DNA from: Convolutriloba macropyga
Taxonomy: Eukaryota
DNA: 64,000 nt
Direction: 5' to 3'
NCBI RefSeq assembly: GCF_964194025.1
Contig: NC_134468.1
Coordinates: 71,548,001 to 71,612,000, forward strand
Both the position numbers and the translations under genes were made by a program. The stretch's first letter is position 1; each line of letters begins with the position of its first letter. Positions 28,185-47,070 of this stretch are shown here, in pieces. The notes below the pieces were generated by a model. The model saw nothing but the letters and a program-made list of their open reading frames with translations. It searched no databases and had not been told where the DNA came from.

Positions 28185-29292
28185 AGTATCAAATTTGGCT
28201 GGGCTGCTACAGATCACACAATACGGGATCTCTTTATGTATGCCAGTCAAACTTGACAAAAGATATAACAAATCGAAGGCAAAGATATATGCCTAAGACC
28301 TGTCTGTGCTATAAGTCTCAATTTAAAATAGTTGGGGGGCTGAAAGTATTAAATTTATAAAAGAGTAAATATAAAATTACAGCTTACTAATTACCAGTTG
28401 TGTAGTGGTGAATTGGAGGTGAGCTGTTGGGCGATCGTTCACTTGGGTGTTTCTTCAGTTATGTTATTTGTCGAAAAAGAAAGTTATAAAATCAAATCTG
28501 GAATTATTTGTCTAAGTTATTAAACAATTTTGTTCGACTATTTTATTGTTAAAGTGAAGTTAAATTTTGAGAAAAAATGAAAGCAGTTGTCTGCTGCTTG
28601 TTTCTGGGTGTGATTTCTGTCTCTCTAATTTTATTCCGTCCCACTTCGCTGAGAGAAACAATTAATTCCTCTCAGCTCCGTTTGGGCCGATAGGGAGCGA
28701 ATCACAAACTCACGTTCATAGTGAGGTGCTTCTTAATTTTCCTATTGGCCGAGAAGGCAAGAGAATTAACTCTTTTTTATCTCACGGAAAAATTATTGAA
28801 ACTCCAAAAAATAATAAAAATCTAAAAAGCTGAGAGCATCAATTATTGATTTCGTAGGCGCCTGTTTTCTGCTTTTCCCCTCTTCTAAAACCGCAACAAT
28901 TATGGTTTTCTTGGGGGCTTTTTATGAGACTCTATTGTCTTTCCCCTGAAGCAATCTGCTTCATCTTTATTGAACTTGGGGGGAAAGATCTGCATTGCAA
29001 CTGTCAAAAGCAGAAGTAATTTAAATCAAAAGAAACTGTGGTTTTACAGGCCGCCTACGTTCAACAACGTACATTTTCTATCCTGGATATAAGCGAGGAG
29101 ATCCAGGCCTAAAGTTGTGTTATTTAAATAAGTCGAACTGAGTTGTTTAAATACTTGTGTACTGGTAGTCTTAATAAGCGTTAGTTTGTTTAGCGCGCGG
29201 CGAAAGAATGGTTAATTAGCGCCTAAATACGTTCGCTCTAATGCGGGATTAATTATCCGCTCATTTGTAACAGCTCTCGTAATACTACAGCT
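28185..29292 (-). repeat. 3' LTR of giant gypsy element (1108 bp)
   Basis: Matches 47088-48197 with about 5 differences seen by eye (3 substitutions, 2 one-base indels). Confidence 0.95.
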
Positions 29293-29305
29293 CACCCCGA
29301 TTTTT
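29293..29305 (-). promoter_or_regulatory. Short, imperfect polypurine tract before the 3' LTR
   Basis: Element strand reads AAAAATCGGGGTG immediately before the LTR start AGCTGTAG. Confidence 0.45.
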
Positions 29306-29479
29306 AAGATAAAAAAGAAAATGATTAAAAAAAGAAATATATTGCATCGTATATAATTTTATTGCGATTGAGACATATAAATGAGTTACTACAAGTTTAG
29401 AAAGTTATGAAATTAATCGCAAAGGGCAACAATGGTATGCTATAAAATAAATCGCAAAGGGCGATAATGTTGTGCTGTA

Positions 29480-30655
29480 TTATTCAAAAAATTCTGGGGG
29501 CAAAATGACTGGGCTTGACATCGGACTGTTACCATCGTCTTCGATCAAAAGAACCTCTTGTATATCGTCCTCAGTTGGTTTGTCCTTATCCATTGATTGT
29601 CGCTTTTTGTGCTTTTTAGCTCTCCTTTTGAGCTCGGAAATTTTGTTTCTTTGTTCTTCGTTTTCCTTCATTAATTGTGTTATTTTCTTTCCTAGCTCCA
29701 GATTCTTTTCTCCAAGTTTTTTGTTGGCGTTTGTTATTTCCAGATGTTTCAAGGAGAACGTTTTTAGCATAGTTTGTGCATTCGATTCGCTGGTTTTTTG
29801 GAGTTGATGGGCAACGACATATTGGCGCCGCCAATAGTCGTTAAGTAGTTGCTTTTCCTCAGGTGGTTTCTGTGATTCCATTTTCAGTTGTTCAAATTTC
29901 AGTTGCAATTCTTGCAACTCTGTTTCCTTTTGAAACAGTTCCTGCCTGAATGTGGTGTTTTCCTCTATTAAACTACTAGTATTGATGTTTGATAGTTCTG
30001 GCATCTCAACAGGAAAAGCGGAAATTGCGTCGTAAGGGACTTCAATATATGCGTCGAGCATATTATTCCTAAGGGTATAAGTGCCCTTCATAGGGTCGCG
30101 ATTTTTAATTCTCCACTTGTTGTTTTCTGTGGGGAGCGAGAAGGTTTTCAGAACTGGAAGCTTTTCGCTGTTGACTAGTATCTGTTGATGTCCATTTGAC
30201 TGGATGATGTTTATTTTACTAGCAACCTCAAACTTGTTGTAGTTTGGTTTCAGGAAATAGAGGAGGGTATTAACGTACCTCGGGTTTTCTTTGTTCATAT
30301 TTTCCTCTCGCGGTTTCTGTAATTTCAAACATTCTGAGGGTATCTTCCTGATAGCGTCGGGAACGAGATCTTCAATGTTGTTCATCTTAATAATTTTGTT
30401 TTTGTGATTGCTAATTTGTTGGATTGGGAATTGTCTCTTTCTGCTAATTTGCCAGTTGTTTTCGGGATCATATTGACTGGAAGTTGATGGAGATGCAATA
30501 GTTGTAGTAACTTGTTGTGTGTTCTGAGGTTTAAATGGAGGCTTTGAGAAAATAGGAGGCTGGGAAGAATGGGTTTGTGTTTGTTCTTGTTGTGTTGTCA
30601 CTTGTTGATGTTGACTGGGGATTATTACGCTTGCGAGTGTGGGTCTGGTAGTCAT
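29480..30655 (-). CDS. Accessory ORF, 391 aa: Q/T/P-rich N-terminus, globular middle, coiled coil, basic NLS-like and SIM-like motifs
   Basis: ATG start. Heptad-rich ELFQKETELQELQLKFEQLK and KKLGEKNLELGKKITQL; KRRAKKHKKR; IQEVLLIEDD. AATAAA follows at about 29360. Confidence 0.8.
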   Translation of the reverse strand: MTTRPTLASVIIPSQHQQVTTQQEQTQTHSSQPPIFSKPPFKPQNTQQVTTTIASPSTSSQYDPENNWQISRKRQFPIQQISNHKNKIIKMNNIEDLVPDAIRKIPSECLKLQKPREENMNKENPRYVNTLLYFLKPNYNKFEVASKINIIQSNGHQQILVNSEKLPVLKTFSLPTENNKWRIKNRDPMKGTYTLRNNMLDAYIEVPYDAISAFPVEMPELSNINTSSLIEENTTFRQELFQKETELQELQLKFEQLKMESQKPPEEKQLLNDYWRRQYVVAHQLQKTSESNAQTMLKTFSLKHLEITNANKKLGEKNLELGKKITQLMKENEEQRNKISELKRRAKKHKKRQSMDKDKPTEDDIQEVLLIEDDGNSPMSSPVILPPEFFE

Positions 30656-30950
30656 TGTTAGTGTTTCCTTGTGGATGATCTAAAATTATTTGATTTTGGT
30701 TAGCCTGTGTCATCAATATCACACATTATGGCTTCTTTTCAAGTTTGCAATTGTATTGCTAATATAAAAAAAAGTATTCTATTGTAAAAATGTTTTTGTA
30801 AGGTTTTGTTGCTAACTGCTTTACTTAAAAATTATAATGCTAAATGCATTTGTTATTAGAGTTTGGTATAAAAGTTTTTGTTTTGCTAAATGCAAAGTTA
30901 ATTTTAATAAAGGGAGGGGGGGTCATAAATTAAAAAATTTTTATACTTAT

Positions 30951-31075
30951 GCCAGGCGGGCAGCCCTGGCACAAGTACGTCTTTCTCCGCTGCCCGGAGG
31001 TGTGAGTCTTGGGGCGTGCGTCACACTAACACGGCTGCAACGACCCGTGCTGCTGGGGAGACAACCTTGCTGAGC
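30951..31075. ncRNA. GC-rich multi-stem structured element (candidate cis-acting RNA)
   Basis: Stems GCCAGG/CCTGGC, CTCCG/CGGAG, GTGTGA/TCACAC and CACGG/CCGTG, plus 8-nt complementarity CGGGCAGC/GCTGCCCG between two hairpins. Confidence 0.5.
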
Positions 31076-31249
31076 TGAAAGAAAAATTTTTCGGGTCGTT
31101 TTTGAAAATTTCAGTTATCGTGTTAGTGTTCTGAATTATTTAGGTTCAAAAGCCAGGGGGGCAGGCTGGAGAAAGCTGAGGTAACCCCTTCCCGAGGAAA
31201 AGTTAAAAGGAAAAAAAAGATCGTTTGGACTTGAGTTGTTTTTGGTTTA

Positions 31250-31642
31250 TCAGACAACGTCGTCTAAAAAATTTTTGCAAATGGGACATTTTTTCTGCTT
31301 ATTTGTACATACTCGACAGAATCGATGTTCGTCATGTTGGGAAAAATGTGGGTGTTTTGTTACTCCTAATTCTGTTTTCATTTTTTTGCATAAATTGCAT
31401 CGGAAGTAGGATGTGATCAGGACGGGAAGACAAGGTCGAAGACAGATGGGACATTTAGGGTTTGGGTATCTCTTAAAAAGTGCTTTTCTGCAAGGAATAC
31501 ATACATAGTGGGGATTTTCTTTGGGGAATTGCTTGTGTAGTTTTTCTACAATAACGGTTTTCCGTGAACATATAGGGCAGATAATGTCCTTATGGGGATA
31601 GAACCAACGGAAACCGTCGAATAGGGATTGTGAAAGACCCAT
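31250..31642 (-). CDS. Double RING-like zinc finger protein 3 (130 aa), N-myristoylation motif MGLSQS
   Basis: C-x2-C-x10-H-x8-H-x2-C-x2-C-x12-C-x2-C, then x14 and a second CxxC-x23(H-rich)-CxxC-x6-CPxC. Confidence 0.85.
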   Translation of the reverse strand: MGLSQSLFDGFRWFYPHKDIICPICSRKTVIVEKLHKQFPKENPHYVCIPCRKALFKRYPNPKCPICLRPCLPVLITSYFRCNLCKKMKTELGVTKHPHFSQHDEHRFCRVCTNKQKKCPICKNFLDDVV

Positions 31643-31666
31643 CGAGTGACTGTTCTCTTATTTTCC

Positions 31667-31789
31667 TTAGATAGAAACAGGAAAACCTTTGAGAAACTGC
31701 AGTAGGATGAGATTAATGAGGAACGATATGGCAAGCAAGGTAATTAGGATTAGGATAAATATTTTTGTGGATAGGTCTAGATTGGTCAT
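31667..31789 (-). CDS. Hydrophobic micropeptide 3 (40 aa), not in ORF track
   Basis: Hand translation: MTNLDLSTKIFILILITLLAISFLINLILLQFLKGFPVSI*. Confidence 0.65.
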   Translation of the reverse strand: MTNLDLSTKIFILILITLLAISFLINLILLQFLKGFPVSI

Positions 31790-31791
31790 TT

Positions 31792-31908
31792 TTAGTATCT
31801 GGAGAAAATTTGGCGAATTGCGGAAAGGAGGTAGTTATTAATAAAAAGGGATATTGTCAATGCGCATAAGAGAACAAATAGAAGAATAGACAATGTTATG
31901 GGTTGCAT
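31792..31908 (-). CDS. Hydrophobic micropeptide 2 (38 aa), not in ORF track
   Basis: Hand translation: MQPITLSILLFVLLCALTISLFINNYLLSAIRQIFSRY*. Confidence 0.65.
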   Translation of the reverse strand: MQPITLSILLFVLLCALTISLFINNYLLSAIRQIFSRY

Positions 31909-31912
31909 TTTG

Positions 31913-32050
31913 TCAATTCAATGAGTAGTGTAGAACTAGGGTGAAGGAGGTGATTTGCTCCTGGTAAAAACTGAGTTGAATTAGGGATATCGATTGGATT
32001 AAAAATAAAATTAGGGAAAGAAGTAAAATTTTGGATGTTCTTGGACTCAT
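31913..32050 (-). CDS. Hydrophobic micropeptide 1 (45 aa), not in ORF track
   Basis: Hand translation: MSPRTSKILLLSLILFLIQSISLIQLSFYQEQITSFTLVLHYSLN*. Confidence 0.6.
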   Translation of the reverse strand: MSPRTSKILLLSLILFLIQSISLIQLSFYQEQITSFTLVLHYSLN

Positions 32051-32056
32051 TTTAGA

Positions 32057-32434
32057 TTATGTGGTTGTTTTTTCGCAACGAGGGCATAATTTATAATCTT
32101 CTACGCAAAATTTACAAAAGTTGACGGGCTTATGATCACTGTGATGAAACGTTTTTGCAACAGAGTATTGAAATCTTGTTTGTTTGCAAATATCACATTG
32201 AAACCAGTTAAAGATTGAAAAGATAACATTAAATTTAGAGCATTTAGGACAAAAATCGTAGCCCATATCTTTTATAACATATTGGTAACAGAGCAGACAC
32301 ATTACGTGGGGTAGTTCGTCAGGGGGGTTCTCGTGTAATTTCTTGAAGACAATTGTTTCACGTCTGCAGCATAAACAAATTAATGAGACCGGTTTGGATT
32401 CTATAGTATTGGTTTCTTTGTCAGTTGTATTCAT
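32057..32434 (-). CDS. Double RING-like zinc finger protein 2 (125 aa)
   Basis: Same Cys/His spacing and KLH..PH, F-x-C motifs as 31250 and 32703. Confidence 0.85.
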   Translation of the reverse strand: MNTTDKETNTIESKPVSLICLCCRRETIVFKKLHENPPDELPHVMCLLCYQYVIKDMGYDFCPKCSKFNVIFSIFNWFQCDICKQTRFQYSVAKTFHHSDHKPVNFCKFCVEDYKLCPRCEKTTT

Positions 32435-32460
32435 TTTTGGAAGATTGTTATTGGAGGGGA

Positions 32461-32664
32461 TTATGGGACTGGTATGGTTGGAGGATTTGGTTGTTGATTA
32501 TTTTGGGATTTTATTGCTTGGTCTATTACTAATATAACTACTAACATCAAAAAATTGAAAGGAATACTTACAACAACGAGGAAAACGGTTAAAATGAAGG
32601 AGAAGGCTGCTGCAATAATCATGAGGGCCATTAATAAAAAATCAAGTACTTTGGGGATAAACAT
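32461..32664 (-). CDS. Small membrane protein (67 aa from first ATG; track ORF starts at GTG 32709)
   Basis: MFIPKVLD followed by about 39 uncharged, mostly hydrophobic residues (one long TM or a hairpin) and a Q/N/P tail. Confidence 0.65.
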   Translation of the reverse strand: MFIPKVLDFLLMALMIIAAAFSFILTVFLVVVSIPFNFLMLVVILVIDQAIKSQNNQQPNPPTIPVP

Positions 32665-32702
32665 TTTGGATAATTTGTGAAGGTAGTTTTGAATCAAGGA
32701 TT

Positions 32703-33101
32703 TTACCACGGGTTGTTTGGGTCAATTGTTTGTTTGCATAAGGGGCATTTAGTAGTGGTGAAGGTCATACACTGCAAACAAATTGATTTTTCAGGGTGTA
32801 GGCTTTTGAAGTGGCTGTGGCAAGTGGATAACTTTTTGATTTCTTGACAAGAATCACACTGGAAATAATGGCAATGACTGATTGTATAAATGGGAGTTAC
32901 GCAAATGGGGCATTTAGGTTGGTTCCAATATTTAAATAATTCGTTTCTACAAGGAATGCAAGCAAAATGGGGGGGCTGACCATTTGGGTTTTTGTGCAAT
33001 TTTTTGAATTGACGGCAAGGGAGATAACAAACAGGGCATTCAACTTTAGGGGTTGTATCAATTTGAGGTTGCTGAGACGATATCTTCAGAATGTTTCCCA
33101 T
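32703..33101 (-). CDS. Double RING-like zinc finger protein 1 (132 aa), begins MG
   Basis: CPVC-x10-H-x8-H-x2-CIPC-x12-CPIC-x14-CDSC..CLQC-x7-CPLC; the ATG overlaps the upstream stop (TAATG). Confidence 0.85.
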   Translation of the reverse strand: MGNILKISSQQPQIDTTPKVECPVCYLPCRQFKKLHKNPNGQPPHFACIPCRNELFKYWNQPKCPICVTPIYTISHCHYFQCDSCQEIKKLSTCHSHFKSLHPEKSICLQCMTFTTTKCPLCKQTIDPNNPW

Positions 33102-33367
33102 TATAAGGAGAAATTAGAAAGATCCGGGTATACGAGTTCTAATCCATGGTGTTCAAGTTCGTTGGGGATAGTTACATTTAAATCTGCAATAGCAAAAAAG
33201 AAATTCCAGTGTTTTTCGTTTGGATAAATATAATAATGATTAATGGTACCTGTGCTTAAGAACATATAAGTTATTTTGATACATGCTTTATATTGTGTAA
33301 AACAGATATTGAACCATCTTTCTACTTTAAGAATTTTAATTTTTTCCTTACCAATAAACAAAATCAT
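33101..33367 (-). CDS. Small accessory protein family A, member 5 (88 aa)
   Basis: MILF..ERWF..CIKITY..PNEKHWNFF; aligns by eye with 33507, 33737, 33979 and 34502. Confidence 0.75.
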   Translation of the reverse strand: MILFIGKEKIKILKVERWFNICFTQYKACIKITYMFLSTGTINHYYIYPNEKHWNFFFAIADLNVTIPNELEHHGLELVYPDLSNFSL

Positions 33368-33506
33368 TTTAGTTTTAACAATTTGGAAAGAAATGAAGGG
33401 AAGAGAACAAATTGATCAGAAAAAAAAGGATAGAAAAAAATGAAGAAGAGGAAAGGAGAGAAAAAAAAAAATTTTGTGGAGAGCAAGTTATGTAAAACAA
33501 ATTACT

Positions 33507-33737
33507 TTACTGAAGAGCGCCCAAGTTGAATGGGAAGTGCTCTTCGATATCGATGAGTGCGAGAAAGAATTCCCAGTGCATCATTCCCATTGTTACTCGA
33601 GTAGAACCCTCACATCCACGCTCGTAGTCTGTATAGTGTATAATTATACAGGGTTTAATCTCTGCTGTGGAAGTTTCAATGAAAGATCTCTCGAGGGATT
33701 CTACTTTGACTAGGCGCTCACCAAAGTGGAACAGCAT
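33507..33737 (-). CDS. Small accessory protein family A, member 4 (76 aa)
   Basis: MLF..ERSF..PCIIIHY..HWEFF..PFNL; TAATG overlap with the upstream ORF. Confidence 0.75.
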   Translation of the reverse strand: MLFHFGERLVKVESLERSFIETSTAEIKPCIIIHYTDYERGCEGSTRVTMGMMHWEFFLALIDIEEHFPFNLGALQ

Positions 33738-33970
33738 TATAGAAGATCTAAATTAAAAGGGATTTTAGAACCATTTAAAGCTTGGGATATATTTATAAAG
33801 AATGTCCAATAGGGGGAAGATGGTGTTAAGGTAATGGTTCCATCAGTCCAAGTGTTTAAATATTCAAAATGGAGTATTAATTGTGGGATTACTCTGTTGC
33901 TTTTTGTCGTGACAAATGATTTTTCAAAAAATTGTATTTGTATAAGGCAGTTTTGGTATGAGAATATCAT
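33737..33970 (-). CDS. Small accessory protein family A, member 3 (77 aa)
   Basis: MIF..EKSF..PQLILHF..LTPSSPYWTFF..PFNL. Confidence 0.75.
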   Translation of the reverse strand: MIFSYQNCLIQIQFFEKSFVTTKSNRVIPQLILHFEYLNTWTDGTITLTPSSPYWTFFINISQALNGSKIPFNLDLL

Positions 33971-33978
33971 TGCTGCTT

Positions 33979-34263
33979 TTAATTGTTAATAGTTTCCAAT
34001 TCTTTAGTAATGAAATCGTTTTGAGAACAATCACTTTTCGGCAATTCAAAATAAAGATTGTGAGGTACACAGTTTGGGTTTTCTAGAATAAAGAGGAAGA
34101 ATTTCCAATGAACTGAAAGAGGATTAATACTTATTAAACAAATTTTTTCACTTTGGATTTCTTTGAGCGTTACTAGCATAGTAGGTACAGGAGTTGGGTA
34201 TGCATCAAAAGATCGTTGAATTTTTTGTAACTCTACAAATTTATTGTTAACTGCAAATATCAT
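33979..34263 (-). CDS. Small accessory protein family A, member 2 (94 aa)
   Basis: MIF..QRSF..PTMLVTL..PLSVHWKFF..PHNL. Confidence 0.75.
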   Translation of the reverse strand: MIFAVNNKFVELQKIQRSFDAYPTPVPTMLVTLKEIQSEKICLISINPLSVHWKFFLFILENPNCVPHNLYFELPKSDCSQNDFITKELETINN

Positions 34264-34278
34264 AGTTTAGAATGATAC

Positions 34279-34518
34279 CTAAGCAATGTAGATTGGATGT
34301 TGTACTTGAAATACCGAGTTCTCTTTGAATGCTAGAAAAATGGTGAATTCGGCAAACTGAGGATGAGTAATGAAAATAGTTAAAAGTCTGTAAATATTTG
34401 TCATGGGTTTTTTTGCGAAAGTCATTATACTTATAGCGGAAACATAGTATACGGCTAATAGCTCAAAATTTTGGTTTCCGATTCTGATTTGTAAGTTTCT
34501 ATTAGTTAAATGAATCAT
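34279..34518 (-). CDS. Small accessory protein, family B-like (79 aa)
   Basis: C-terminal THPQFAEFTIFLAFKENSVFQV resembles PNF..LL..L...NSVIE of 44838 and 45344. Confidence 0.6.
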   Translation of the reverse strand: MIHLTNRNLQIRIGNQNFELLAVYYVSAISIMTFAKKPMTNIYRLLTIFITHPQFAEFTIFLAFKENSVFQVQHPIYIA

Positions 34519-34744
34519 GTTGCTGATCTAGCTCGTTTGGCAAACTATTAGGGTCGAATTGTGCTAAATACACGAAATAATTCCAATACAACGAATGAGG
34601 GGTTAAAATCACAGTATCGTATTCCCAAGTGTCCCAAAACTCAAAATTTATAATGATTTGAGGGAAAATGTCTCCGTGATTTTCTTCAAAAGTTTTCTTT
34701 ATTTGATAAATTGTAACGAGTCTATCTTGAAACAAAAAGTACAT
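34502..34744 (-). CDS. Small accessory protein family A, member 1 (80 aa)
   Basis: MYF..KKTF..PQIIINF..LTPHSLYWNYF..PNEL; closest by eye to 33737. Confidence 0.75.
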   Translation of the reverse strand: MYFLFQDRLVTIYQIKKTFEENHGDIFPQIIINFEFWDTWEYDTVILTPHSLYWNYFVYLAQFDPNSLPNELDQQHDSFN

Positions 34745-35046
34745 TAATGGAAGCGTTTTAGTTGTTAATTAACTTATTGTTCTTCATTTCAAAACTATGT
34801 ATAAAAGTATGTAAATGTAAAAAAAAGGATAAAAAAAGGGTGTGTCAATTATTTCTGAAAAGAGGATTATTGACAACGATTGATATTTATAGATAATATA
34901 TCAATCGGATTCACTGAGGCAAAATCGGAGTATGGGAAGAGTGCAGGCAATAGCTAGATAGACATAGTTGCGATTACATAGTTGAAAATGGATTATAAGA
35001 AATAAAAAGCAAGGAAGGAATCCACACATGTCTCTTACAGGAAAAG

Positions 35047-35331
35047 TCAAAGTCTAATAATATTTTTCTTCAGATGCTTTGAAACAATTTTGTATTCGAC
35101 TCCAATGTTTACAAAAGTAATTGTGTCATCAATCAGGGCTCTTAACAATGAGAAGTATTGAAAATTTGAATGCGGTACGTCCAAGTCTATAATGTCACTG
35201 AAGTAGAAAGATGCAACTCTAATAGTTACAGTAGTTTTTAAATCGGAAAGACTTGAGGATAATATCTGTCCGGTGTATTGTCCAAATCGAATGAATAAAG
35301 CGTTAGGCTGTTTTATGAATTTGGGTTGCAT
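35047..35331 (-). CDS. Small accessory protein (94 aa), unknown function
   Basis: ATG start, co-oriented, first ORF after env; weak resemblance (IRFG, HSNFQYF) to 34279. Confidence 0.6.
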   Translation of the reverse strand: MQPKFIKQPNALFIRFGQYTGQILSSSLSDLKTTVTIRVASFYFSDIIDLDVPHSNFQYFSLLRALIDDTITFVNIGVEYKIVSKHLKKNIIRL

Positions 35332-35458
35332 AGCATAGCATCCTTGAGGTGTATCTAAACAAGATATTAATTAACTTATAGAGTCTAATACAAATAATCT
35401 TTTTTATTTTTGAGACAAATTATTTTTTTATGAAAAAGATGATTTTTTTTAACAGCTT

Positions 35459-37807
35459 TTAAGGAGGTGCCACCACACTTCGAATGGTTGCATCATTTTG
35501 TGGTTGTGGTTGATGTGACGCCAGATTTGGGTATTCTCCTTTATTATTTTCTGTATGACAATGCTCATCAATTTTATTTTCTCTTGGTTGATCCTCAACG
35601 CATTTGTAAGTTTTTTCTATTGTGCTGTAAGGTTGATAATTACTAAGCGGTAAAAAATGATTGTTGTTCTGCGGGGCCGACGGTTTGGTTTCGTTAGAGA
35701 ATACCGGTGTAAAGAACGATAAGATACAGAGATTATATGTTGCTCCTAATAGAATTTTCCAAAAACCCATTGTTTTGTTGGATATTTTGTGGATTTCGAA
35801 CGCTCTTATGATTGTTACGATTACATCAGTTAAGAATTTTGTGCACAAGAAACAAGCAAAATAAACTCCAATTTTTTCCAGATAAAAAGTGATGATTCCA
35901 AAAGTGCCTTTGAACTGGTCTGTAAAAAATGTAGGTGAAAGAAGAGAATCTAGATAAATTTGTCTGTTAATTCCCATTGCTGACGCATAGATATCTTTTT
36001 GAGAATAGTCTATGCTTCTTCCTTCTAGAACTTCTCTTGAAATTTTTGTCAAAACAGATTTTGAAGCTTCCGAATGCAAGATATTGTCCCAAAAAGATTT
36101 AAGTTGATTTGGTGTGTAAATTCCGGCACGTTGCGATTCGTAACCGGTAAATTTTGGAATAGAACTAATAACTCTTGAAGAGAATATTTTTGGCGGTTGT
36201 AAAGGAACAGGTGCTGGCATCAAATGGTACCATGAATTTTCATTATCAATATCTAATTGGTAGGCATTTTTGTAGCCTCCAACACAATCTACTTCGTTTG
36301 CAAAAGGGTAGGTTTGTCGAGTAATTGGGTCGACGAACATTGTCCTACCATCATAATGAATAGGAATCCTATCATAACACTGTTCAAGAACCTGAAGTGG
36401 TGAGTTTCGTTTTGGACAGTGGTACAGCCAACCTATGCTACCATCTGTGTCTAAGAACATCGAGCGGTTGCCGGTTAACATATATCCAGCTAAACGATTG
36501 TTTTGGATAGCCTGCATTAGTATCATTTGTTTTTGAGTTCGGTCAAGTTCGCATTGTTCTATGACCAAACCTTTCCATGCTTGTTTTATTTGCATGTAAT
36601 TATGATATATGACAAAATCCATTTTTACCGCAAGGTTAAGATCATAGTCTAACTTGTCTTTGTCTAAGTGTTCCCATGCAACAAAACCATTGTCGGATGT
36701 TCGGATCTGTTCATCTGAAGGCTTCCTATTAAACCCATTTACACTTAGGCTATTGTCAGGTTCAACACGAAGTTTATGAAAAAATTGTTGAGTTTTTGTT
36801 TTATAAGGTTTGCCAGTCTTCATATTAAATCCGCCTTTATAAGAAACATATAAAGAATCTAAATTTGTTCTGTAAATAAATTCTGGTTTTCCACACACCT
36901 TTCCTTTTTCATCAATTACTCTAATTTTTATGTCCATTTCAGCAGGAGAATACGTTCCTGGTCCTTCATAGGGCGTCTCCGGTTTTTCATCACTCACTAT
37001 GAAATACTGTACGTTACCAAGTTCGTTTTCATGTTTTAGCATTTTTGCGTTTTGTGAAAATCTTTTAGTAACTATACAATTTTCCGGTGCCTCCCAATTG
37101 TATGCAAAGGGGTCGAGTGATGTCGAATGACAACCTCCTTCTGAGAGGGCATAAGGAAGTTTTAGTCCTTGACTGTTATAGACAGTTCTGTCATTAAGAT
37201 CAATATCGAGTACAGTTTCTTGCATCAAGGTTTCAAAAGAGAAGTGTTTAATTTGACCACGATTATCACAAGATGTTGATGATTCACCTTCAAGATCAAC
37301 TCCCTGGTTTTTATAGGAGACAGTTTTTATTCCATGTTTTATGTCTATTTCCTTGTCATCATCGTCAAATTCGGTAACAGTAATTTTTCCAGTTTTATTA
37401 GCATTTAGGCATTGTTCGGGTGAAACAATAATATCGTATGTTATTATTGGAGCGTTGTGTACAATTGATGAATGGGAAAACATACCACAATTATAACGAA
37501 TGAGCATTGCAGTGACTTTGCACATAAGAGCTTTAACAAAGGTCCGATAAGACCGTTGATAAAGTGTTACATGTGTATCAACCATTTGAATGTTTTCGGG
37601 TGTAATTTTGCAAGGAGAAACTTGTGTTAAAGCATACATTTTATTTTCTTTCATTTTAGAACAGTCATAATGAATGACCCTAAGTTTGTTAGATACGTCA
37701 TTAATATCCTCAGTAGCGTTAATAACTATAGAAAGAGTACAAAAGTAGAAAAGACTTATAAGTAAATAAGAAAAATAGAGTTTTTCAAAACAAGGATATC
37801 TTTTCAT
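35459..37807 (-). CDS. env: Envelope glycoprotein, chuvirus-G/herpes-gB-like (class III fusogen-like), 782 aa from first ATG
   Basis: Signal-like FSYLLISLFYFCTLSIVINA; Cys-rich ectodomain with HYDCS, CELDR, WLYHC..CYDRIPIHYDGRTMFVDPITR..VDC and GIYT; C-terminal hydrophobic segments; located after pol. The frame is open from 37867. Confidence 0.8.
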   Translation of the reverse strand: MKRYPCFEKLYFSYLLISLFYFCTLSIVINATEDINDVSNKLRVIHYDCSKMKENKMYALTQVSPCKITPENIQMVDTHVTLYQRSYRTFVKALMCKVTAMLIRYNCGMFSHSSIVHNAPIITYDIIVSPEQCLNANKTGKITVTEFDDDDKEIDIKHGIKTVSYKNQGVDLEGESSTSCDNRGQIKHFSFETLMQETVLDIDLNDRTVYNSQGLKLPYALSEGGCHSTSLDPFAYNWEAPENCIVTKRFSQNAKMLKHENELGNVQYFIVSDEKPETPYEGPGTYSPAEMDIKIRVIDEKGKVCGKPEFIYRTNLDSLYVSYKGGFNMKTGKPYKTKTQQFFHKLRVEPDNSLSVNGFNRKPSDEQIRTSDNGFVAWEHLDKDKLDYDLNLAVKMDFVIYHNYMQIKQAWKGLVIEQCELDRTQKQMILMQAIQNNRLAGYMLTGNRSMFLDTDGSIGWLYHCPKRNSPLQVLEQCYDRIPIHYDGRTMFVDPITRQTYPFANEVDCVGGYKNAYQLDIDNENSWYHLMPAPVPLQPPKIFSSRVISSIPKFTGYESQRAGIYTPNQLKSFWDNILHSEASKSVLTKISREVLEGRSIDYSQKDIYASAMGINRQIYLDSLLSPTFFTDQFKGTFGIITFYLEKIGVYFACFLCTKFLTDVIVTIIRAFEIHKISNKTMGFWKILLGATYNLCILSFFTPVFSNETKPSAPQNNNHFLPLSNYQPYSTIEKTYKCVEDQPRENKIDEHCHTENNKGEYPNLASHQPQPQNDATIRSVVAPP

Positions 37808-37910
37808 CCTGTTCTTTTTTAGCGCTTCAAGTCGGGAATTAAGGCTATAAGTTGTAGTAATAGGCACTGCCAGTAAATGTTGACTGGATTTATTGCTACC
37901 TAAAACAAAG

Positions 37911-40900
37911 TTAAGTAAATCCGGCTTGATAGCGTGATGGCGGCTTGGCCGAGCGACTAGAAGTTCGCCTATTATTATTATTATTTTCTAAAGTTTGTAA
38001 ATTAGAAGGTCCTTGTTCCGATGTATTAGGGCGGAGAGGACTTAAATTAGGGTCTAGAGGTATTCTAGAATTGTGCTGTGGGCAAGGAGTTGAACTTCTT
38101 GTTCGACTACCGCTAGGTAAGTGTGTTTGGACTGGAGGTGGGTCATTACGACCACCTGAACTTGCTTCGTTGAATCCAGAATCGAAATTGGTAGGTGTTC
38201 GGTCAGGGTCGAAGTTCTGCACAGGGGAGTCTCTTCGTATGAAATTATCCACGGGGAAATATTCGGTGTTAGTGGGGCTTTGGAAGGAGAATTTAGTCAA
38301 AGGACTATTGAGTTTATTCATCTGACTTGTCATTAGATTATTATAAAATGTGTCACAATTATTTTTATCTATACCATACTCTAGAGTTAACTCTGGTATA
38401 GTTTCAGTAGCTGGGTAGTACTCGACTAGGTGATTTCTATGAGCGACCTTCCTGGTGGCCGGGTTGCTATCTAAAGTTAATTCATAGTTAACATTGGTTA
38501 GTTTTTTTTCTACAGTATAAGGACCTGATCTTAGTTCGTGTAGTTTTTTTGACTTTCCTAACTCAATTTGATGGTTTTCCATTAGAACTTTTTGTCCAAC
38601 CTCAAGTGGCTTGCCTAATTTGTGTTTGTTTCTATGTTTATGTGCGCGGTTATTGTTTTCTAAGCTCTTTTTATAAGCGTTATTGTATATTTGTTTGAAT
38701 TGGTTTTCTCGCATAAGCAACGAATTGTTAATAGTCGGTTTTAGAAGTTTGTCAATTTCGGTGTTTTTTGAAGTTTGCAAGGTATGCCTGTGAAGAGGCA
38801 GGTCTTTGCAAAACTCGGAAGAGCATGTGAGTTGTGAATTTCGTAGGAGTCCTAACTTAAGTGACAGAGGTATCTGTGGTTTTTGTCCGAACACAATTTC
38901 ATAAGGTGAGATTCCAGTACTAGCATTTGGAACCGTGTTATGAGAAAAAGCAAATTTTGGTGCCAGTTCGTCCCATTTACCTCGAGCTTGTTCTAGAAAA
39001 ATTCGGAAATGTGCTCCTAGATGTTTGTTTTGGATCTCGACTTTACCATTAGTCCAAGGCGCATAAGCAGTTCGAGGTGCGGGTGTTATACCTAATTCAT
39101 GAATGTAACTCGCAAAATCTTGGTTCATGAATGCCGAACCCTTATCATAAACAAGTTTTTGTGGTATTCCAAAAGACAAGATGAACTTTTCTAAAGCTTT
39201 TATGGTGTCTACTGCGTCTGTGGAACGTACAGGGTATACTTGAATGAAACGCGAAAATGAATCGACAATAACTAAACAATGGTGTTTACCGTTTGATGGA
39301 GGATTTAAAGGTCCTTTGTGATCAATGTGGACCGTATGAAAGGGGAATGGGACTGTATCAGTCCACTTTTCGAGAGGTGCTTCGTGGATGTCTCTCCGTT
39401 TTCGTTTATTTTTTTGGCATTCAAGGCAATCAGCAATTAGGTTTTCAATCCATTTATACATTCCGGGCCAATAAAAAAATCGTTTTACATTAGCAAGTGT
39501 TTTATCTAAACCGACATGACCTGACAGTTCACAATGAGCTAGCTGAAAAACTTTAAAGAACAATGACAGTGGTACACAAATTTTTAAGAATTCAATATCT
39601 GGTTCGTCTGTTTGATGTTGAATACATAAGATGTTGCCTACAAAACTCAGTTTTTCAAAGTTATTAATGTATGACATTATGGCTTTAGATTGTCGGAATT
39701 CAATTTTCTTTTCATCTTTGTTATTGTTCGTCCTTAATTGGCGAATTTGTTGTATCACTGGGTCTTTTAATTGTTCTTGACAAATTACCGATGTATTTAA
39801 ATCAACTTCTTTAGAGAAGATTGTCAGTTTATCGATGAGTTCTCTTGCATCTTGTATTTTTGTATTTTCGGGAAATTTTTTTGCTAATTCGGTTTTGTCT
39901 ATACAAGTGCTATTTTTCACGAGAAAAACTTTATCGTATTCTAGAGGGAATCTGTACTCCGAGTCTGTGGTATTAGTTTGATCAATGTAGAGTTTGTCAA
40001 AATCTAATTCCGGTGACTGGTTCTCATTGAACAATTCAAATTCCGAAATTGGGTCAAAATTTTGTTCGGTTATCCCTTCATCAGGGTAGGAATCAATTTC
40101 TGTATAATGATCAGACGTTTCGCCTTCCTCCTGTTCTGATACAGGGGTTATTTCATGTTTGCGGTGACGCCTATAGTGGTTAATTGATGAACCATACGAG
40201 AAATCTTCCGAAATATTGTTTATTGAGCAAAGTCTGTTTTGATTATTGTCGTACTTTTGCTTTACCATTTTGTCATTTTTGAAAATGAATTTGTCGATAC
40301 CCGTTATGCTTTGTTTTAGGATTGGAAAAAAGTCATCTGCTGGTCCCTTTTCATTATCACGCAAAATGAAGTATTTTTCCTCGTTACCATGCTCGTCGTA
40401 AAAACTAATGTCTTTTGGTATCTTTTTGTGTTTAAGTTGATACTTGTCCAGATCTTTAATTTTTACATTGCGACTTAGGATGTCGGGAAAAGCTAAGTTT
40501 TTTCCTTCAGTCCAAATAATTTTCAAGTTCTGAAATTGAGATATTACTAACTGGTATCTAAAAAACCTGTGAGAGAGTTTTCCTCTTCTACCCCATAGAT
40601 ACATTAAAGGTTTATGGTCTGTGTACACGTATACAGGATGGGGAGAACCAATTAGGTAATGCTCATGAGTTTGTAATGCCGATATTACACCGCAAAGTTC
40701 GCGTGCTGTGGTACTCATTTTTTGTTCCTCTTTAGTGTAAATTCTAGAGTTAAAAGACACTATTCGTTTCCCTTCTGGAAATTCTTGAACGAGAATTGAG
40801 CCTACTCCTATAGAAGAAGCGTCTACATGCACGTGGAAAGGGTATTTAGTATCCGGTATTGCTAAGATAGTATCTTCGCTAATTCTGTTTTTAATGTCGT

Positions 40901-43007
40901 TAAACAGTTTTTCGTGTTCCATTGTCCAAACAAATTTAGTTTCTGTGCGGGTTAAGTCATAGAATGGTTTGCAGTCAACATGCAAATTTTTGATGTACAT
41001 GCTGTAGAATCCTAAGCAGCCTAGAACTTTCATGACATCACGTTTGTTTTCAGGCGACTTAAGTGCTTTTAAATCTGCTACTCGCTTCTTGACTGGTTGT
41101 ATTCCATCTTTACCTACTACATGTCCCAAGAACTGTACTTTCCTAAGGAAAAATTTAGTCTTTTCAGGTTGAGCTTTCAATCCTGATTTCCTTAAAAGTT
41201 CATGGTACTTGTCAATTATTTCAAACATTTCGGTTTCATCTTGCGCTTGCATGATGGTGTCATCAATGTAGGTTATAGCTTGTTTTTTTCTAATTAATGG
41301 TGCAAAATGGATAGTCATTATACGACTAAAGAAATTAGGTAGACCGCATAGGCCGTAAAATCCGCGTTCAAATGTGTATTGCTTTGGACCAATTACAAAA
41401 CTTACCAGCTGTTTGGTTTCCTCAGTTAGAGGGACTTGGTTATAGGCTGAACAAAGATCACTGGTTGTGAAGAAATTACCTTTTAATCTAGTTAATAGAC
41501 TTCCGATTGGTTCGAGTGGCCATGAATATCGACTAAGGTCTGTTATTGAATTCAGATATCGGGCATCTATAACCAGTTTTACTGTGTTCCCCTTGGGTAG
41601 GATTATGATTGGATTAATAAATTCTGATCCCATTTCTTTATCATTACCCATTTCCCGGATTATACCTGTTTTACACAGTTGTTCCAATAGGTTTTCTAGT
41701 TTTTCCTGATAATGTAATGGTACTTTGGATGGTCTTTGTTTTGTCAAAGTTGAATTAGGTAAAAGTTTAACATGAAACTTTTGTTTTATCTTTCCAACAT
41801 CGTATTTGTGTTGAGAGTAAACGTCTTTATTTTTAGTTAAAGTCCTCAGTAACTTGTCTAAGTTTTCGTCATTGATATCAGCTTGACTGAAATCAAATTT
41901 TTTGAGAAACGCTTGATCGGTTTTGTCAAACCTGTTAAGTTTTTCTTTGGGAAGTTCAACGGGTCTGATGTTCTCATCAGTTGTTTCTAATTGTGGCTTA
42001 AGATCCTTGAGGTCGTCGCTAAAGTCTGTTTCTAATTCGTAGTTGTTGGTAAAATCTTGTTGCCTTTTTCGCTTTTCTGTTTTCTTTTGTTTTTCAGGAG
42101 TTTTGCTTGCAAAGAAATTTTGAATTTTTGAAATTTTTGGACCTTGTTTTTCACTAACATGGAATATTTGATCCCAATTAGTGTCACTATTCATTAGGTG
42201 GTTTATGAATGCAACGTTGTCAACTACAGAAAATTCTGGGTCTTGTCTAATTTCAATGTCTTCTAAAGTGTGTCCAATAGGACCCTTTTGGATGACAACC
42301 TTGTTGTTTTGAGGATTGTTTAGCATTATTGGTAATTCCTTTTCTTTTCTAAAACACTGAACGTTGTAAGTATAAATTCCTTGAGCTTGCAGTTCACTTC
42401 CAATTACGAAGGAGGTTCCCTTTCTGAAGAATTCATTTGGTGGTCTAATTGATATTACTCGAGTTGATTTTGGTGCTAATGGTAGTTGCTGGTCAAGAGT
42501 TACAACTTTGTAAGAGCTAATGTATGGATAGCTTTTCGTTTGGTATCTAGATAGTGTGACGGCTACTTCAGGGTAAGTTTTTAAATCAATTTTTGGAGTG
42601 GTTAGGTCAATAGATTTTACTGTAGATTCAAGGAAATCCATTCCCAACAGATTTGGCTTGCAACCATCTTTTGCTGAAACCCATGTGGTAACTTCCACTT
42701 GATACTTTCCTTCAATGTCGAAAGAAGTTTTGAAAGTAATTTGACCTAGAAGTTTTAGTTTCTCACCATTAACCGCTAAAGTATGATTTTTTGAAGCTTT
42801 CATCTCAATGTGTTGTAATTTACATAGTTCAAGATAAGTGTGGTAATTAATTATAGAGCTTGATGCTCCTGTGTCCAATAAAAACTGTGTTTCTAAGCCG
42901 TTATTTTTATTTTTGTCTCCGACGGATTGGTATAAATTAATATAGATATGTGAGTAACTTGCTTTGTTATCATTAGTGTTTATGAACGGAGACCTGTCTA
43001 GTTTAAA
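37911..43007 (-). CDS. pol: Pol (protease, dUTPase-like relic, RT, RNase H, integrase), expressed by -1 frameshift from gag
   Basis: FLLDTGAS; YIDD (41259-41270); VDAS..ELCG..TDHKPL..DILSR; H-x5-H..CxxC; IDHKGP..YDKG..KVE; GPY motif. The frame is open from the slippery site at 43007 to the stop at 37911. Confidence 0.95.
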   Translation of the reverse strand, partial: FKLDRSPFINTNDNKASYSHIYINLYQSVGDKNKNNGLETQFLLDTGASSSIINYHTYLELCKLQHIEMKASKNHTLAVNGEKLKLLGQITFKTSFDIEGKYQVEVTTWVSAKDGCKPNLLGMDFLESTVKSIDLTTPKIDLKTYPEVAVTLSRYQTKSYPYISSYKVVTLDQQLPLAPKSTRVISIRPPNEFFRKGTSFVIGSELQAQGIYTYNVQCFRKEKELPIMLNNPQNNKVVIQKGPIGHTLEDIEIRQDPEFSVVDNVAFINHLMNSDTNWDQIFHVSEKQGPKISKIQNFFASKTPEKQKKTEKRKRQQDFTNNYELETDFSDDLKDLKPQLETTDENIRPVELPKEKLNRFDKTDQAFLKKFDFSQADINDENLDKLLRTLTKNKDVYSQHKYDVGKIKQKFHVKLLPNSTLTKQRPSKVPLHYQEKLENLLEQLCKTGIIREMGNDKEMGSEFINPIIILPKGNTVKLVIDARYLNSITDLSRYSWPLEPIGSLLTRLKGNFFTTSDLCSAYNQVPLTEETKQLVSFVIGPKQYTFERGFYGLCGLPNFFSRIMTIHFAPLIRKKQAITYIDDTIMQAQDETEMFEIIDKYHELLRKSGLKAQPEKTKFFLRKVQFLGHVVGKDGIQPVKKRVADLKALKSPENKRDVMKVLGCLGFYSMYIKNLHVDCKPFYDLTRTETKFVWTMEHEKLFNDIKNRISEDTILAIPDTKYPFHVHVDASSIGVGSILVQEFPEGKRIVSFNSRIYTKEEQKMSTTARELCGVISALQTHEHYLIGSPHPVYVYTDHKPLMYLWGRRGKLSHRFFRYQLVISQFQNLKIIWTEGKNLAFPDILSRNVKIKDLDKYQLKHKKIPKDISFYDEHGNEEKYFILRDNEKGPADDFFPILKQSITGIDKFIFKNDKMVKQKYDNNQNRLCSINNISEDFSYGSSINHYRRHRKHEITPVSEQEEGETSDHYTEIDSYPDEGITEQNFDPISEFELFNENQSPELDFDKLYIDQTNTTDSEYRFPLEYDKVFLVKNSTCIDKTELAKKFPENTKIQDARELIDKLTIFSKEVDLNTSVICQEQLKDPVIQQIRQLRTNNNKDEKKIEFRQSKAIMSYINNFEKLSFVGNILCIQHQTDEPDIEFLKICVPLSLFFKVFQLAHCELSGHVGLDKTLANVKRFFYWPGMYKWIENLIADCLECQKNKRKRRDIHEAPLEKWTDTVPFPFHTVHIDHKGPLNPPSNGKHHCLVIVDSFSRFIQVYPVRSTDAVDTIKALEKFILSFGIPQKLVYDKGSAFMNQDFASYIHELGITPAPRTAYAPWTNGKVEIQNKHLGAHFRIFLEQARGKWDELAPKFAFSHNTVPNASTGISPYEIVFGQKPQIPLSLKLGLLRNSQLTCSSEFCKDLPLHRHTLQTSKNTEIDKLLKPTINNSLLMRENQFKQIYNNAYKKSLENNNRAHKHRNKHKLGKPLEVGQKVLMENHQIELGKSKKLHELRSGPYTVEKKLTNVNYELTLDSNPATRKVAHRNHLVEYYPATETIPELTLEYGIDKNNCDTFYNNLMTSQMNKLNSPLTKFSFQSPTNTEYFPVDNFIRRDSPVQNFDPDRTPTNFDSGFNEASSGGRNDPPPVQTHLPSGSRTRSSTPCPQHNSRIPLDPNLSPLRPNTSEQGPSNLQTLENNNNNRRTSSRSAKPPSRYQAGFT
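42915..43007 (-). promoter_or_regulatory. -1 ribosomal frameshift signal: U UUA AAC plus downstream stem
   Basis: T TTA AAC (43007-43001) directly before the gag TAG. After a 7-nt spacer, GTCTCCG (42993-42987) is complementary to CGGAGAC (42921-42915). The -1 frame is the pol frame. Confidence 0.8.
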
Positions 43008-44332
43008 TACTCGTCGTTGTGATTCTCATTATTGTAATAGTTTCTGGAAGTTTCACTGGTAAAGTGAACTCGAGGGCTTCGCCCTTCACTGTTATCTCTT
43101 GAATGAGTATTATTGTTTTGTCTAGTAGGTGTCCTATCCCGGTCATGGTCTCTACTCCTATCACGATATCGATTATCTGATCTTGGAGGACCGTTGCTTT
43201 GTCTATCCCTACTATTTTGCCTATTGTTATCTCTGTAAAAGTTGTTTCGATAGTTATTTTGTCGTTCCTGTGATCGGTTATCGTAAGAAGATGATCGATA
43301 ATTGTTTGAAGAGTTTGATGGGTACGGTGATCGATGTCGGTAGTCTGATCTAGAGTTGTTTTGATAATTGGATTGATTTTGGTTATAACTATTTCTCTGT
43401 CTGTCCCTAGAATTTCGATTGTCATAATTGTTTGATTTGTAATTTTGTTGACCTGGTGAATGGCACCTACTACGTTTATAATTATCTGTGAACTTTTCTC
43501 GTTGTTGAGGTGGGTTTCGGTTTTCGTTTTTAAAGTCCTTGTACTTAAAGCAGAAAGCTATTGTGTGACCTGAACGTTTGCAAAACTTGCAGAATCTAGT
43601 CTGGTTTTGTTTGAATCTGGGGTTGTCGTTGTTGTATGTGGCGTTTATTTTATGATCTTTCATTAAATTTGCAATTTCTGTGAGTTGGTTTTTTAACCCT
43701 TCTATTTCTATTTTATTGTCGATACTACTTGAGGCAGTACCCGTGAATTCACTGCTAACAGAAAAACTTAAGTCTTTAGTTGCTACATGATCCTGTAATT
43801 GTTGCCAAGTTGTAGCTGGGTTTTCTATTAACCGCTGATGTGCCTTTTGCTTGAGTGTAGGTGGCGTTAATCCTCTTACAAAGTACTCCATACACTTAGC
43901 GTTACGCTGGTCGTTGTTAAAATCTGGATCTGGCCATCCTTTTTCAACTGCTTTTGTTACTCGGTGTGTATAGCTTTTTATCAATTCATCTGGTTGCCTT
44001 TTAATACTCTCGACTTCAATTCTTTTCCTATACTTGTCTTTTGCATCAGTAAAGCGGGTAATGAACTGATTTCTAACTTCGTTCCATGCTAAACCTGGTG
44101 CTAAGGTTTCAAACCATTGGGCTGCGGGCCCACGCAAAACCGAACCAAACAATGCTTTTTGTCTAGCGTCGTATGCTGCTTGTAAATCAGCATCCGCAGG
44201 ATCTCTTGTTCCTAGTGAGAATTGGATTTTTCTTTGTATTAAACTAAAGAATTCCTGGGCATCTTCAGATGGATCTAAACCTGTAAATTTCTCTAACGCT
44301 ATGTCGGGGTACGCAACAACGTTCGCTGCCAT
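42998..44332 (-). CDS. gag: Gag (444 aa) with CCHC knuckle and long R/S/N/D-rich tail
   Basis: AAACATGG start context; capsid-like LRGPAAQWF..WNEVRNQFITRF..QPDELIKSYTHR; CKFCKRSGHTIAFC (CX2CX4HX4C). Confidence 0.92.
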   Translation of the reverse strand: MAANVVAYPDIALEKFTGLDPSEDAQEFFSLIQRKIQFSLGTRDPADADLQAAYDARQKALFGSVLRGPAAQWFETLAPGLAWNEVRNQFITRFTDAKDKYRKRIEVESIKRQPDELIKSYTHRVTKAVEKGWPDPDFNNDQRNAKCMEYFVRGLTPPTLKQKAHQRLIENPATTWQQLQDHVATKDLSFSVSSEFTGTASSSIDNKIEIEGLKNQLTEIANLMKDHKINATYNNDNPRFKQNQTRFCKFCKRSGHTIAFCFKYKDFKNENRNPPQQREKFTDNYKRSRCHSPGQQNYKSNNYDNRNSRDRQRNSYNQNQSNYQNNSRSDYRHRSPYPSNSSNNYRSSSYDNRSQERQNNYRNNFYRDNNRQNSRDRQSNGPPRSDNRYRDRSRDHDRDRTPTRQNNNTHSRDNSEGRSPRVHFTSETSRNYYNNENHNDEYLN

Positions 44333-44441
44333 GTTTTGTTTTAGTATATGAAAAGAATATTTTATACGAAGGTACTATTAGTTTGGGTAATTAGTGTAGA
44401 AAATATTTTTGTTATGACAATTAAGTAATAAAACACTAATA

Positions 44442-44816
44442 CTAAAGTAGAAAGTTGAATTGTTTGTTTTGTGTTATGAATTTTATTTGTTTAGGCCCGT
44501 TTAATGATTGTATTTTAAATTCAAAGTTTTTGCCGTTATCAGTGCTAAAGATTTCAACCCAAGAGTAAATATCAGTTTGCTCGACGGTAAAATTTAATAA
44601 CCAAGGATACGTATTTTCAGAGTGTTTAAATTCAACAGAGTATTGGTGAAATCTGTTTATTTTTGAAAATCTAATTTGTGTGACAAATTCTGTTTTTATA
44701 AGTAATTTAACTCTATCTGGTAAACTCGGATCGTCAGGAGAAACGTTGATGTATTTGGGTTTAATGATTTTTAAAATTTGTAAACCAAACGGGGAAGTTA
44801 TATTTTGGTGGCTCAT
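44442..44816 (-). CDS. Accessory ORF upstream of gag (124 aa from first ATG), unknown function
   Basis: Co-oriented, non-repetitive, beta-strand-like composition; the track start 44822 is GTG. Confidence 0.6.
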   Translation of the reverse strand: MSHQNITSPFGLQILKIIKPKYINVSPDDPSLPDRVKLLIKTEFVTQIRFSKINRFHQYSVEFKHSENTYPWLLNFTVEQTDIYSWVEIFSTDNGKNFEFKIQSLNGPKQIKFITQNKQFNFLL

Positions 44817-44837
44817 CCACACGCTAGATGATAACGT

Positions 44838-45074
44838 TTAGGCTAATTCTATTACACTGTTTCGATTTCTTAGAGCAACCAAAAGTTCATTAAAGTTTGG
44901 GTTAGTCCACTTATAAGTAATGTAGATTTCGGTCTGTGTTTCGTTAGGACAATGATGGTAAATGCATAAGAAGTTTCTGTTCTGATCAGTTAAATAATAT
45001 GAAACTTTGCCTATTTTGTTCTGTACTTTAATACTTATGTTTAAATTCTGAACATTTACTTTAATATATGACAT
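44838..45074 (-). CDS. Small accessory protein family B (78 aa from first ATG), upstream of gag
   Basis: IYITYKWTNPNFNELLVALRNRNSVIEL matches the ORF at 45344. Confidence 0.7.
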   Translation of the reverse strand: MSYIKVNVQNLNISIKVQNKIGKVSYYLTDQNRNFLCIYHHCPNETQTEIYITYKWTNPNFNELLVALRNRNSVIELA

Positions 45075-45343
45075 ATAAATAACATAGAACAATTGTTTTT
45101 TTTCTGTTTTATTATTGTATTTTTGTATGAAATTACACAGAGGACAGTATAAAAACGTTTAATACGGGTTGTTTAGTACATCAGTAGTAGTATTTTAGTA
45201 GTTATTATTATGTAGAAATGTGTATGTATAATGTTTCTAAAGTGATTGAGTCTGTTAATGACCGTATTTTAGCATGAAACAACAACTTTTCTATGATAAA
45301 TTTGTGTACAAAGCGGGTTAAAAAGGCTAATTTACGCTTTAAA

Positions 45344-46860: not shown

Positions 46861-47070
46861 GATTACCCCCACCCGGGTCAGAACAATTTTACAAGAGCAA
46901 AGAATCAGTTGCCTGTTACTATTTTAATGTAAATTTACTGTATTTCGGCCGTAAATTTGATATAAATTACTCTATTTGTTTGTCTATTAGTGTGCTTTCA
47001 CTTCTGTGGTAGTGGTTATTTTACTATTTTAATCCGATCGGATAGAAAAACAAAAATTCAGGCGTGATTC

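Follow-up and report, generated by a model that had tools for sequence, protein, structure and literature searches.

The 64,000-nucleotide stretch of Convolutriloba macropyga DNA analysed here (contig NC_134468.1, positions 71,548,001 to 71,612,000 of the forward strand; hereafter the window, with position 1 as its first letter) contains a long terminal repeat (LTR) retroelement of 20,008 bp. Inside this element lie three paralogous open reading frames (ORFs) that are kept by purifying selection and predicted to encode small proteins with two RING domains in tandem. A first-pass annotation made from the letters alone had described three retroelement-encoded ORFs of 125-132 amino acids (aa) with a fixed cysteine/histidine spacing, two of them beginning with MG. 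This description holds: the ORFs are present on the minus strand with exactly that spacing, ORF1 and ORF3 begin with MG, and all three are accessory genes within the 20,008-bp element.

32703..33101, minus strand: ORF3, 132 aa, starting MGNILK; its type is found in every family examined, and its start codon overlaps the upstream stop codon (TAATG)
32057..32434, minus strand: ORF2, 125 aa, without Gly2 and with the most altered surface for ubiquitin-conjugating enzymes (E2s; CLCC, CPKC)
31250..31642, minus strand: ORF1, 130 aa, starting MGLSQS (G-x-x-x-S myristoylation pattern)

Pairwise identity among the three proteins is 28-38%, with synonymous sites saturated. In all of them the first module (RING1) reads C-x2-C-x10-H-x8-H-x2-C-x2-C-x12-C-P-x-C, and a 14-residue linker leads to a second module (RING2) of the form C-x2-C...C-x2-C-x6/7-C-P-x-C. 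Eight Cys/His ligands are kept in RING-like spacing, with His instead of Cys at ligand 3, although a few decayed database copies have lost single ligands. Over all six reading frames the window shows the RING1 spacing just three times, once in each of these ORFs, and 0/100,000 shuffles of each ORF have it. For the second module the cysteine frame noted at first pass was seen again and its description refined, since two conserved His make this half C2H2C4 as well: across 21 aligned sequences two His and six Cys are invariant or nearly so. The arrangement is not that of RING1-IBR-RING2 (RBR) proteins, as only the 14-residue linker separates the two modules.

Distribution of the family and purifying selection

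In sister elements the RING genes sit at the same place as in the window element (family A), flanked on one side by the small-ORF array and on the other by a final ORF that is likely coiled-coil. Family B carries two RING copies (reverse transcriptase, RT, 93% identical) and family C one (RT 89% identical), while the decayed family D has the same three RING genes in the same order, encoding proteins 50-69% identical to those of the window. A 1.2-kb deletion takes out both RING genes in the family-B copy L053 (G000:C3, ~65.02 Mb); a spread of this RING-less form was considered and rejected, the deletion being present in 1/28 matches. Throughout the 1.18-Gb genome, the best 150 of 990 candidates for ORF1 show 68-100% identity and the best 150 of 1,025 candidates for ORF3 64-100%, and 27/30 of the best ORF1 loci have a same-strand RT match ~10 kb upstream (compared by hand). 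The window stretch is also present in contigs of four runs from one study, the kind of contig being unrecorded.

Searched with the family profile, 1.84 billion representatives yielded 41 matches, none of which, among those looked up, is named; alignments made from it hold 21 (A3) and 23 (A4) sequences, and the rows P0087, P0101 and P0102, by appearance unrelated or composition-driven, were left out. Three of the matched sequences likely stem from other genomes, to judge from their low or absent match in the host genome (identity 33-49% for P0076 and 32-41% for P0086, no match at E 1e-20 for P0081). No relatives were found in viral contigs (two single-protein queries) or in phage records, and a metagenome locus (L115) was dropped, its radical-SAM-like gene matching by chance. 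A longer or fused form is absent from 1,483 candidates, which is weak evidence. In the tree of RING proteins 3/13 branches are supported, and no order of events was drawn from it.

Selection was assessed in 42 loci, comprising the 30 best ORF1 matches and 12 picked by lower identity or through other queries. Variants shared by at least two copies have passed through replication, whereas singletons mostly reflect decay after insertion. The ratio of nonsynonymous to synonymous polymorphism (pN/pS) for shared variants is 0.17 for ORF1, 0.30 for ORF2 and 0.19 for ORF3 (42, 42 and 38 of the 42 loci, four being without ORF3), as compared with 0.82, 0.73 and 0.90 for singletons (Fisher p 3e-7, 0.006 and 1e-6), where the choice of loci by ORF1 similarity biases the ORF1 counts and those for ORF2 and ORF3 less so. 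A 67-aa hydrophobic ORF between the RING genes has a pN/pS of 0.60 (in a count with one locus entered twice). From the low values for shared variants relative to singletons it follows that the RING proteins are under purifying selection and are kept for the benefit of the element.

Predicted fold, membrane anchor and E2 surface

Both halves of the proteins are predicted to adopt a RING fold, the second more tentatively. The AlphaFold model of ORF3, built from 21 sequences, has a predicted local distance difference test score (pLDDT) of 79.9 and a predicted template modelling score (pTM) of 0.66, with pLDDT ~90 over residues 21-90. When the full model was compared with 48,161 chains, the 50 best rows were RING or U-box chains or large complexes, the alignment of the latter covering that same stretch of RING size (Z 4.8-7.1). 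Examples from the top, matched to the first half, are GID (Z 7.1, root-mean-square deviation (rmsd) 5.2, 69 residues aligned) and the RING of RNF146 (Z 6.5, rmsd 2.1, 55 aligned). The second half of ORF1, folded alone, reached a pLDDT of 82.0, and its best rows are again U-box/RING chains (Z 4.1, rmsd 2.0, 44 aligned; Z 4.6, rmsd 2.0, 46 aligned). The AlphaFold check that had been proposed at first pass came out in favour of a RING, though weakly (Z 5-7 for the first half, up to 4.6 for the second); LIM and PHD folds, named there in the refuting case, matched only far down the lists. Profiles of the two halves match each other with a probability of 93%, a Cys-biased value, and weak Pfam RING matches occur in 11/23 family members. 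Against PDB sequences the family profile finds the RINGs of RNF4, TRIM32 and RLIM best (E 6e-4 to 0.013), and ORF3 residues 18-82 alone find no RING match there. Individual scores are low, and the RING assignment is based on the uniform fold lists together with the ligand pattern and the weak Pfam matches. We regard it as extremely improbable that these are unselected cargo, or zinc modules other than RINGs that bind protein or nucleic acid: low fold scores and scattered LIM, PHD and zinc-ribbon matches are what such a view can draw on, but RING/U-box chains dominate every fold list and purifying selection excludes cargo.

Counts of residues below refer to 16 family rows, of which three are near-duplicates and two come from decayed copies. 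Gly2 is present in 8/16 rows as against 1.9% Gly overall, and six of the eight Gly2 rows have Ser or Thr at position 6, in agreement with the myristoylation consensus G-x-x-x-S/T. The MGLSQS start of ORF1, pointed out at first pass, fits this pattern by its sequence, and Gly2 is retained in 41/42 copies of ORF1 and 38/38 copies of ORF3. Every intact family studied, A, B and C alike, has one or more RING copies beginning with MG, a start that all remaining ORFs of their cassettes lack. Proteins of the ORF1/ORF3 type are, on this pattern, likely myristoylated.

A membrane anchor of this sort would also suit the matrix substitute suggested at first pass. In the manner of arenavirus Z, myristoylated RING proteins that do not act as ligases would then connect the capsid with the envelope where particles bud. 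One premise of that suggestion was confirmed, since Gag has no N-terminal Gly (it starts MAANVV, in an open frame without an upstream Met) and Gly2 is missing from Gag in families A and C; the MG-starting RING copy of every intact family agrees with it, and Lassa Z is among the fold matches (Z 5.1, rmsd 2.4, 50 aligned; Atlas 0.86, a lead only). Z ties with dozens of other RINGs in these matches, however, and the late-domain motifs PTAP/PSAP, PPxY and YPxL are absent from 10/10 RING proteins scanned. A PSAP is instead situated in the Env tail of families A (window Env residue 709) and B, though not of family C. One to three copies at 28-50% identity suit accessory genes better than a structural protein, and many gag-pol-env elements have been described without such a gene (PMC13524379). 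The matrix role thus comes out weakened and appears rather improbable.

RING1 keeps the hydrophobic patch by which RINGs bind E2s. The residue between Cys1 and Cys2 is I, V or L in 15/16 rows, Cys6+4 is hydrophobic in 16/16 (W in three) and Cys7+2 in 14/16, while Pro65 is invariant in 21/21 aligned sequences. RING2 keeps the patch poorly, with I or L in 9/16 rows, only 6-7 residues between Cys6 and Cys7 and a short helix.

We favour, with a probability that we would put at about one half, the reading that the three selected accessory genes encode likely myristoylated RING-type ubiquitin ligases (E3s) or E2 adaptors. The product would be a membrane-tethered RING protein whose RING1 recruits a host E2 and which acts as a weak or partner-dependent E3. 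RING2, with its short helix and poorly kept patch, may be a target- or partner-binding module, or it may replace the second subunit of a RING dimer. ORF2 is possibly a non-catalytic partner, and the paralogs may have diversified in their targets. Ubiquitination at membranes could then remove host restriction factors or aid particle release.

Several observations weigh against this interpretation. All fold scores stay below Z 8, none of the Foldseek matches reaches E 0.001, and no Pfam RING model attains its cut-off for the window proteins. ORF2 lacks Gly2, and there is no separate substrate-binding domain. At the linchpin position that follows Cys8, RING1 has Arg in 1/16 rows and Lys in 1/16 (L, S and V in the window), RING2 has Lys in 3/16 and Arg in 0/16, and host RINGs have Arg in 24/26 rows listed (three being one gene). 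Non-Arg linchpin variants of RNF38 mostly have minimal activity with E2 binding mostly kept (PMC12326332), and the missing Arg counts against a strong conventional E3; a cationic linchpin is common in RING E3s without being universal, the same article states that the residue varies, and some active RINGs have no Arg there. On the side of E2 docking stands the predicted complex of ORF3 with a host Ubc13-like E2, which scores 0.44 versus 0.02 for the best control; this is a weak pass, in a range (up to 0.60) where complex scores are more often wrong than right (5/78 solved complexes, all 4 passing mismatches). Contacts agree to at least 96% between these runs, with partner pLDDT at least 72, and the score could reflect memory of solved RING-E2 pairs.

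The same linchpin data have led us to consider catalytically dead RING decoys or adaptors, which, by binding E2s of the host or by pairing with its RING ligases, would block ubiquitin signalling directed against the element. Retention of the E2 patch with loss of the linchpin Arg, the behaviour of the RNF38 variants and the tiny size of proteins without a substrate domain all fit this idea, as does an alignment of the linker with the MDM2 dimer tail (E 0.56). That likeness is not significant, no host partner was identified, and the active RINGs without a linchpin Arg speak for possible catalysis, so that dead decoys seem unlikely.

The element and its accessory genes

The element that carries the three genes belongs to the gB-type env-carrying kind, as seen from its LTRs, target-site duplication, gag-pol-env genes with RT-RNase H-integrase order and gB/chuvirus-like Env. 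It is a high-copy gag-pol-env LTR element whose envelope is of the chuvirus/gB type.

28187..48194, minus strand: whole LTR element, 20,008 bp, host of all three double-RING genes
47091..48194, minus strand: 5' LTR, TGTAGTA...TTTGATA, followed 2 nt on by a TGG tract resembling a primer-binding site
42998..44332, minus strand: gag, 444 aa, PF03732, without N-terminal Gly
37911..42803, minus strand: pol, RT-RNase H-integrase order, open frame of 1,704 aa
35459..37807, minus strand: env, 782 aa, PF24664 (Monjiviricetes fusion glycoprotein, E 1.2e-38), PSAP in the C-terminal tail
33101..35331, minus strand: small-ORF array between env and the RING genes, five clear paralogs of one 76-94-aa family and a distant sixth
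32461-32664, 31913-32050, 31792-31908 and 31667-31789, minus strand: four tiny ORFs interleaved with the RING genes, hydrophobic as judged from sequence
29480..30655, minus strand: 391-aa ORF, last gene of the cassette, C-terminal half likely coiled-coil, with homologs in sister families
28187..29289, minus strand: 3' LTR, with 3 substitutions and 1 indel relative to the 5' LTR over ~1,103 bp

The putative kinship of Pol with Ty3/gypsy is based on domain order and Pfam matches. Among ten other copies a 4-bp target-site duplication is exact in eight and has one mismatch in two. The flanks of the window copy (28183-28186 and 48195-48198) differ at 2/4 bases and thus, unlike those of most copies, form no matching duplication; this copy is possibly a recombinant of two insertions or an assembly join. 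No Rfam family reaches threshold within the element, and no tRNA gene was found in the window. Tandem repeats of 104 bp occupy 46036-46855 in the 5' untranslated region. Outside the element, at 55606-61104 on the plus strand, lies a second, broken retroelement with ORFs that appear BEL/Pao-like by eye.

In all, ~19 separate small genes, including two paralog arrays, flank gag-pol-env. The 76-94-aa family of the array shares conserved Phe, Pro and W-x-F/Y-F, also kept in sister families B and C, and has no match in Pfam, PDB or Atlas. The small ORFs of 31250-35331 lie close together, most being separated by -17 to +38 nt, and TAATG stop-start overlaps occur at 33737 and 33101 and once in family C. 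Such packing and overlaps suggest polycistronic expression, putatively via reinitiation or through dense subgenomic transcripts. Three more ORFs (85, 78 and 124 aa), two of which seem related by eye, are located upstream of gag at 44442-45601 on the minus strand. A short distance upstream of the coiled-coil ORF, at 30940-31080, is a GC-rich island with a 14-bp hairpin; its fold z is -2.0, and it matches no Rfam family.

Comparison with MDM2 and other known systems

The first-pass annotation had called the modules MDM2-type and had likened the string CIPCRKALFKR to MDM2. The C2H2C4 order has been described as unique to Mdm2/Mdm4 (PMC6372010), and these proteins do share with the window ORFs the ligand order C-C-H-H-C-C-C-C with CPxC and the first x10 gap, and an aromatic pair follows Cys8 at a similar distance (12-13 residues here, 11-12 in MDM2). 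Other spacings differ: from His3 to Cys5 there are 11 residues here versus 8 in MDM2, and from Cys6 to Cys7 12 versus 10 (His452 of MDM2 from PMC7010608, other positions counted back from Phe490). The window proteins further differ from MDM2/MDM4 by their doubled domain and by lacking the linchpin Arg and the p53-binding, acidic and zinc-finger domains.

One might imagine that MDM2/MDM4 RINGs were captured and duplicated and now imitate MDM2, with p53 as their target. Of all RINGs, MDM2 gives the best match for ORF1 residues 18-82, with its helix, CPxC and tail aligned, and the host has two p53-family loci. The E values of the best MDM2 sequence match are only 0.42-0.56 (not significant), however, and MDM2 chains, present among the Foldseek candidates, are outside the 50 best full-model structural rows. 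As to a donor gene in the host, no C2H2C4 RING was found among the best 30 of 61 PF13920 matches and no MDM2-like SWIB domain among three matches. A specific kinship with MDM2/MDM4 is accordingly not supported, nothing points to p53 as the target proposed at first pass, and we hold MDM2 mimicry to be very improbable. Independent gain of the ligand-3 His by convergence is no less likely than capture.

Among PDB sequences the family profile fits the engineered RNF4 RING-RING fusion best, across both halves (PDB 4ap4, E 6e-4). RNF4 RING-RING fusions are active without induced dimerisation (PMC3991395); 4ap4 differs from the proteins described here by a linker of 20 instead of 14 residues and by its C3HC4 ligands. 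With 4ap4 absent from the 50 best full-model rows, the model does not support packing like that of an RNF4 dimer. Arenavirus Z is likewise a small viral protein with Gly2 and a RING fold (PMC3497041) but carries a single RING together with a late domain at its C-terminus, as opposed to two RINGs, no late domain and a retroelement setting in the present case.

A gag-pol-env order between LTRs and a chuvirus/gB-like Env are shared with errantiviruses (PMC13524379) and with planarian Burro (PMC6431247). Burro carries the ubiquitin- or apoptosis-related domains BIR, MATH/TRAF, ubiquitin-like and AIR1, mostly inside one polyprotein (PMC6431247), while here separate small genes are found. Names for RING, accessory genes or acoels are absent from the main text and seven supplementary files of the errantivirus survey (PMC13524379). 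A stand-alone RING family from an LTR retroelement did not emerge when the open literature was searched for RING, E3 or accessory genes of retroelements, a scope outside which lie most subscription papers and the Repbase entries that may list such elements.

RINGs of large DNA viruses (baculovirus CG30, PE38 and IE2, herpesvirus ICP0, giant viruses) fill the viral fold list without significance (best E 0.003) and appear in the Atlas list at 0.84-0.89, as leads only. They are single canonical RINGs within larger proteins. The cellular RING ligases ZNRF1/2, RNF11 and MGRN1 are myristoylated; they combine a Gly2 membrane anchor with a RING, as the window proteins would, and differ by having a single RING and other domains, no homology being shown.

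Set beside these systems, the window family is a real, selected variant of RING proteins in a new setting. It is possible, though we suggest it tentatively, that a lineage of complex retrovirus-like elements of invertebrates encodes myristoylated single-chain double-RING ligases, a second C2H2C4 class beside MDM2 that functions without the linchpin Arg, in a polycistronic cassette of ~16 genes as an anti-host armament like that of large DNA viruses. Such proteins would offer a natural test of RING rules, with a ligand-3 His in non-MDM2 spacing, two RINGs per short chain and no linchpin Arg, and their targets would show how an invertebrate restricts retroelements. The element itself, 20 kb long with ~19 small extra genes in arrays, widens the range of what env-carrying LTR elements are known to encode. 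Complex retroviruses gain access to ubiquitination by way of adaptors that subvert ligases of the host; if the assignment is right, an LTR element equipped with an expanded RING family of its own would pursue a different strategy.

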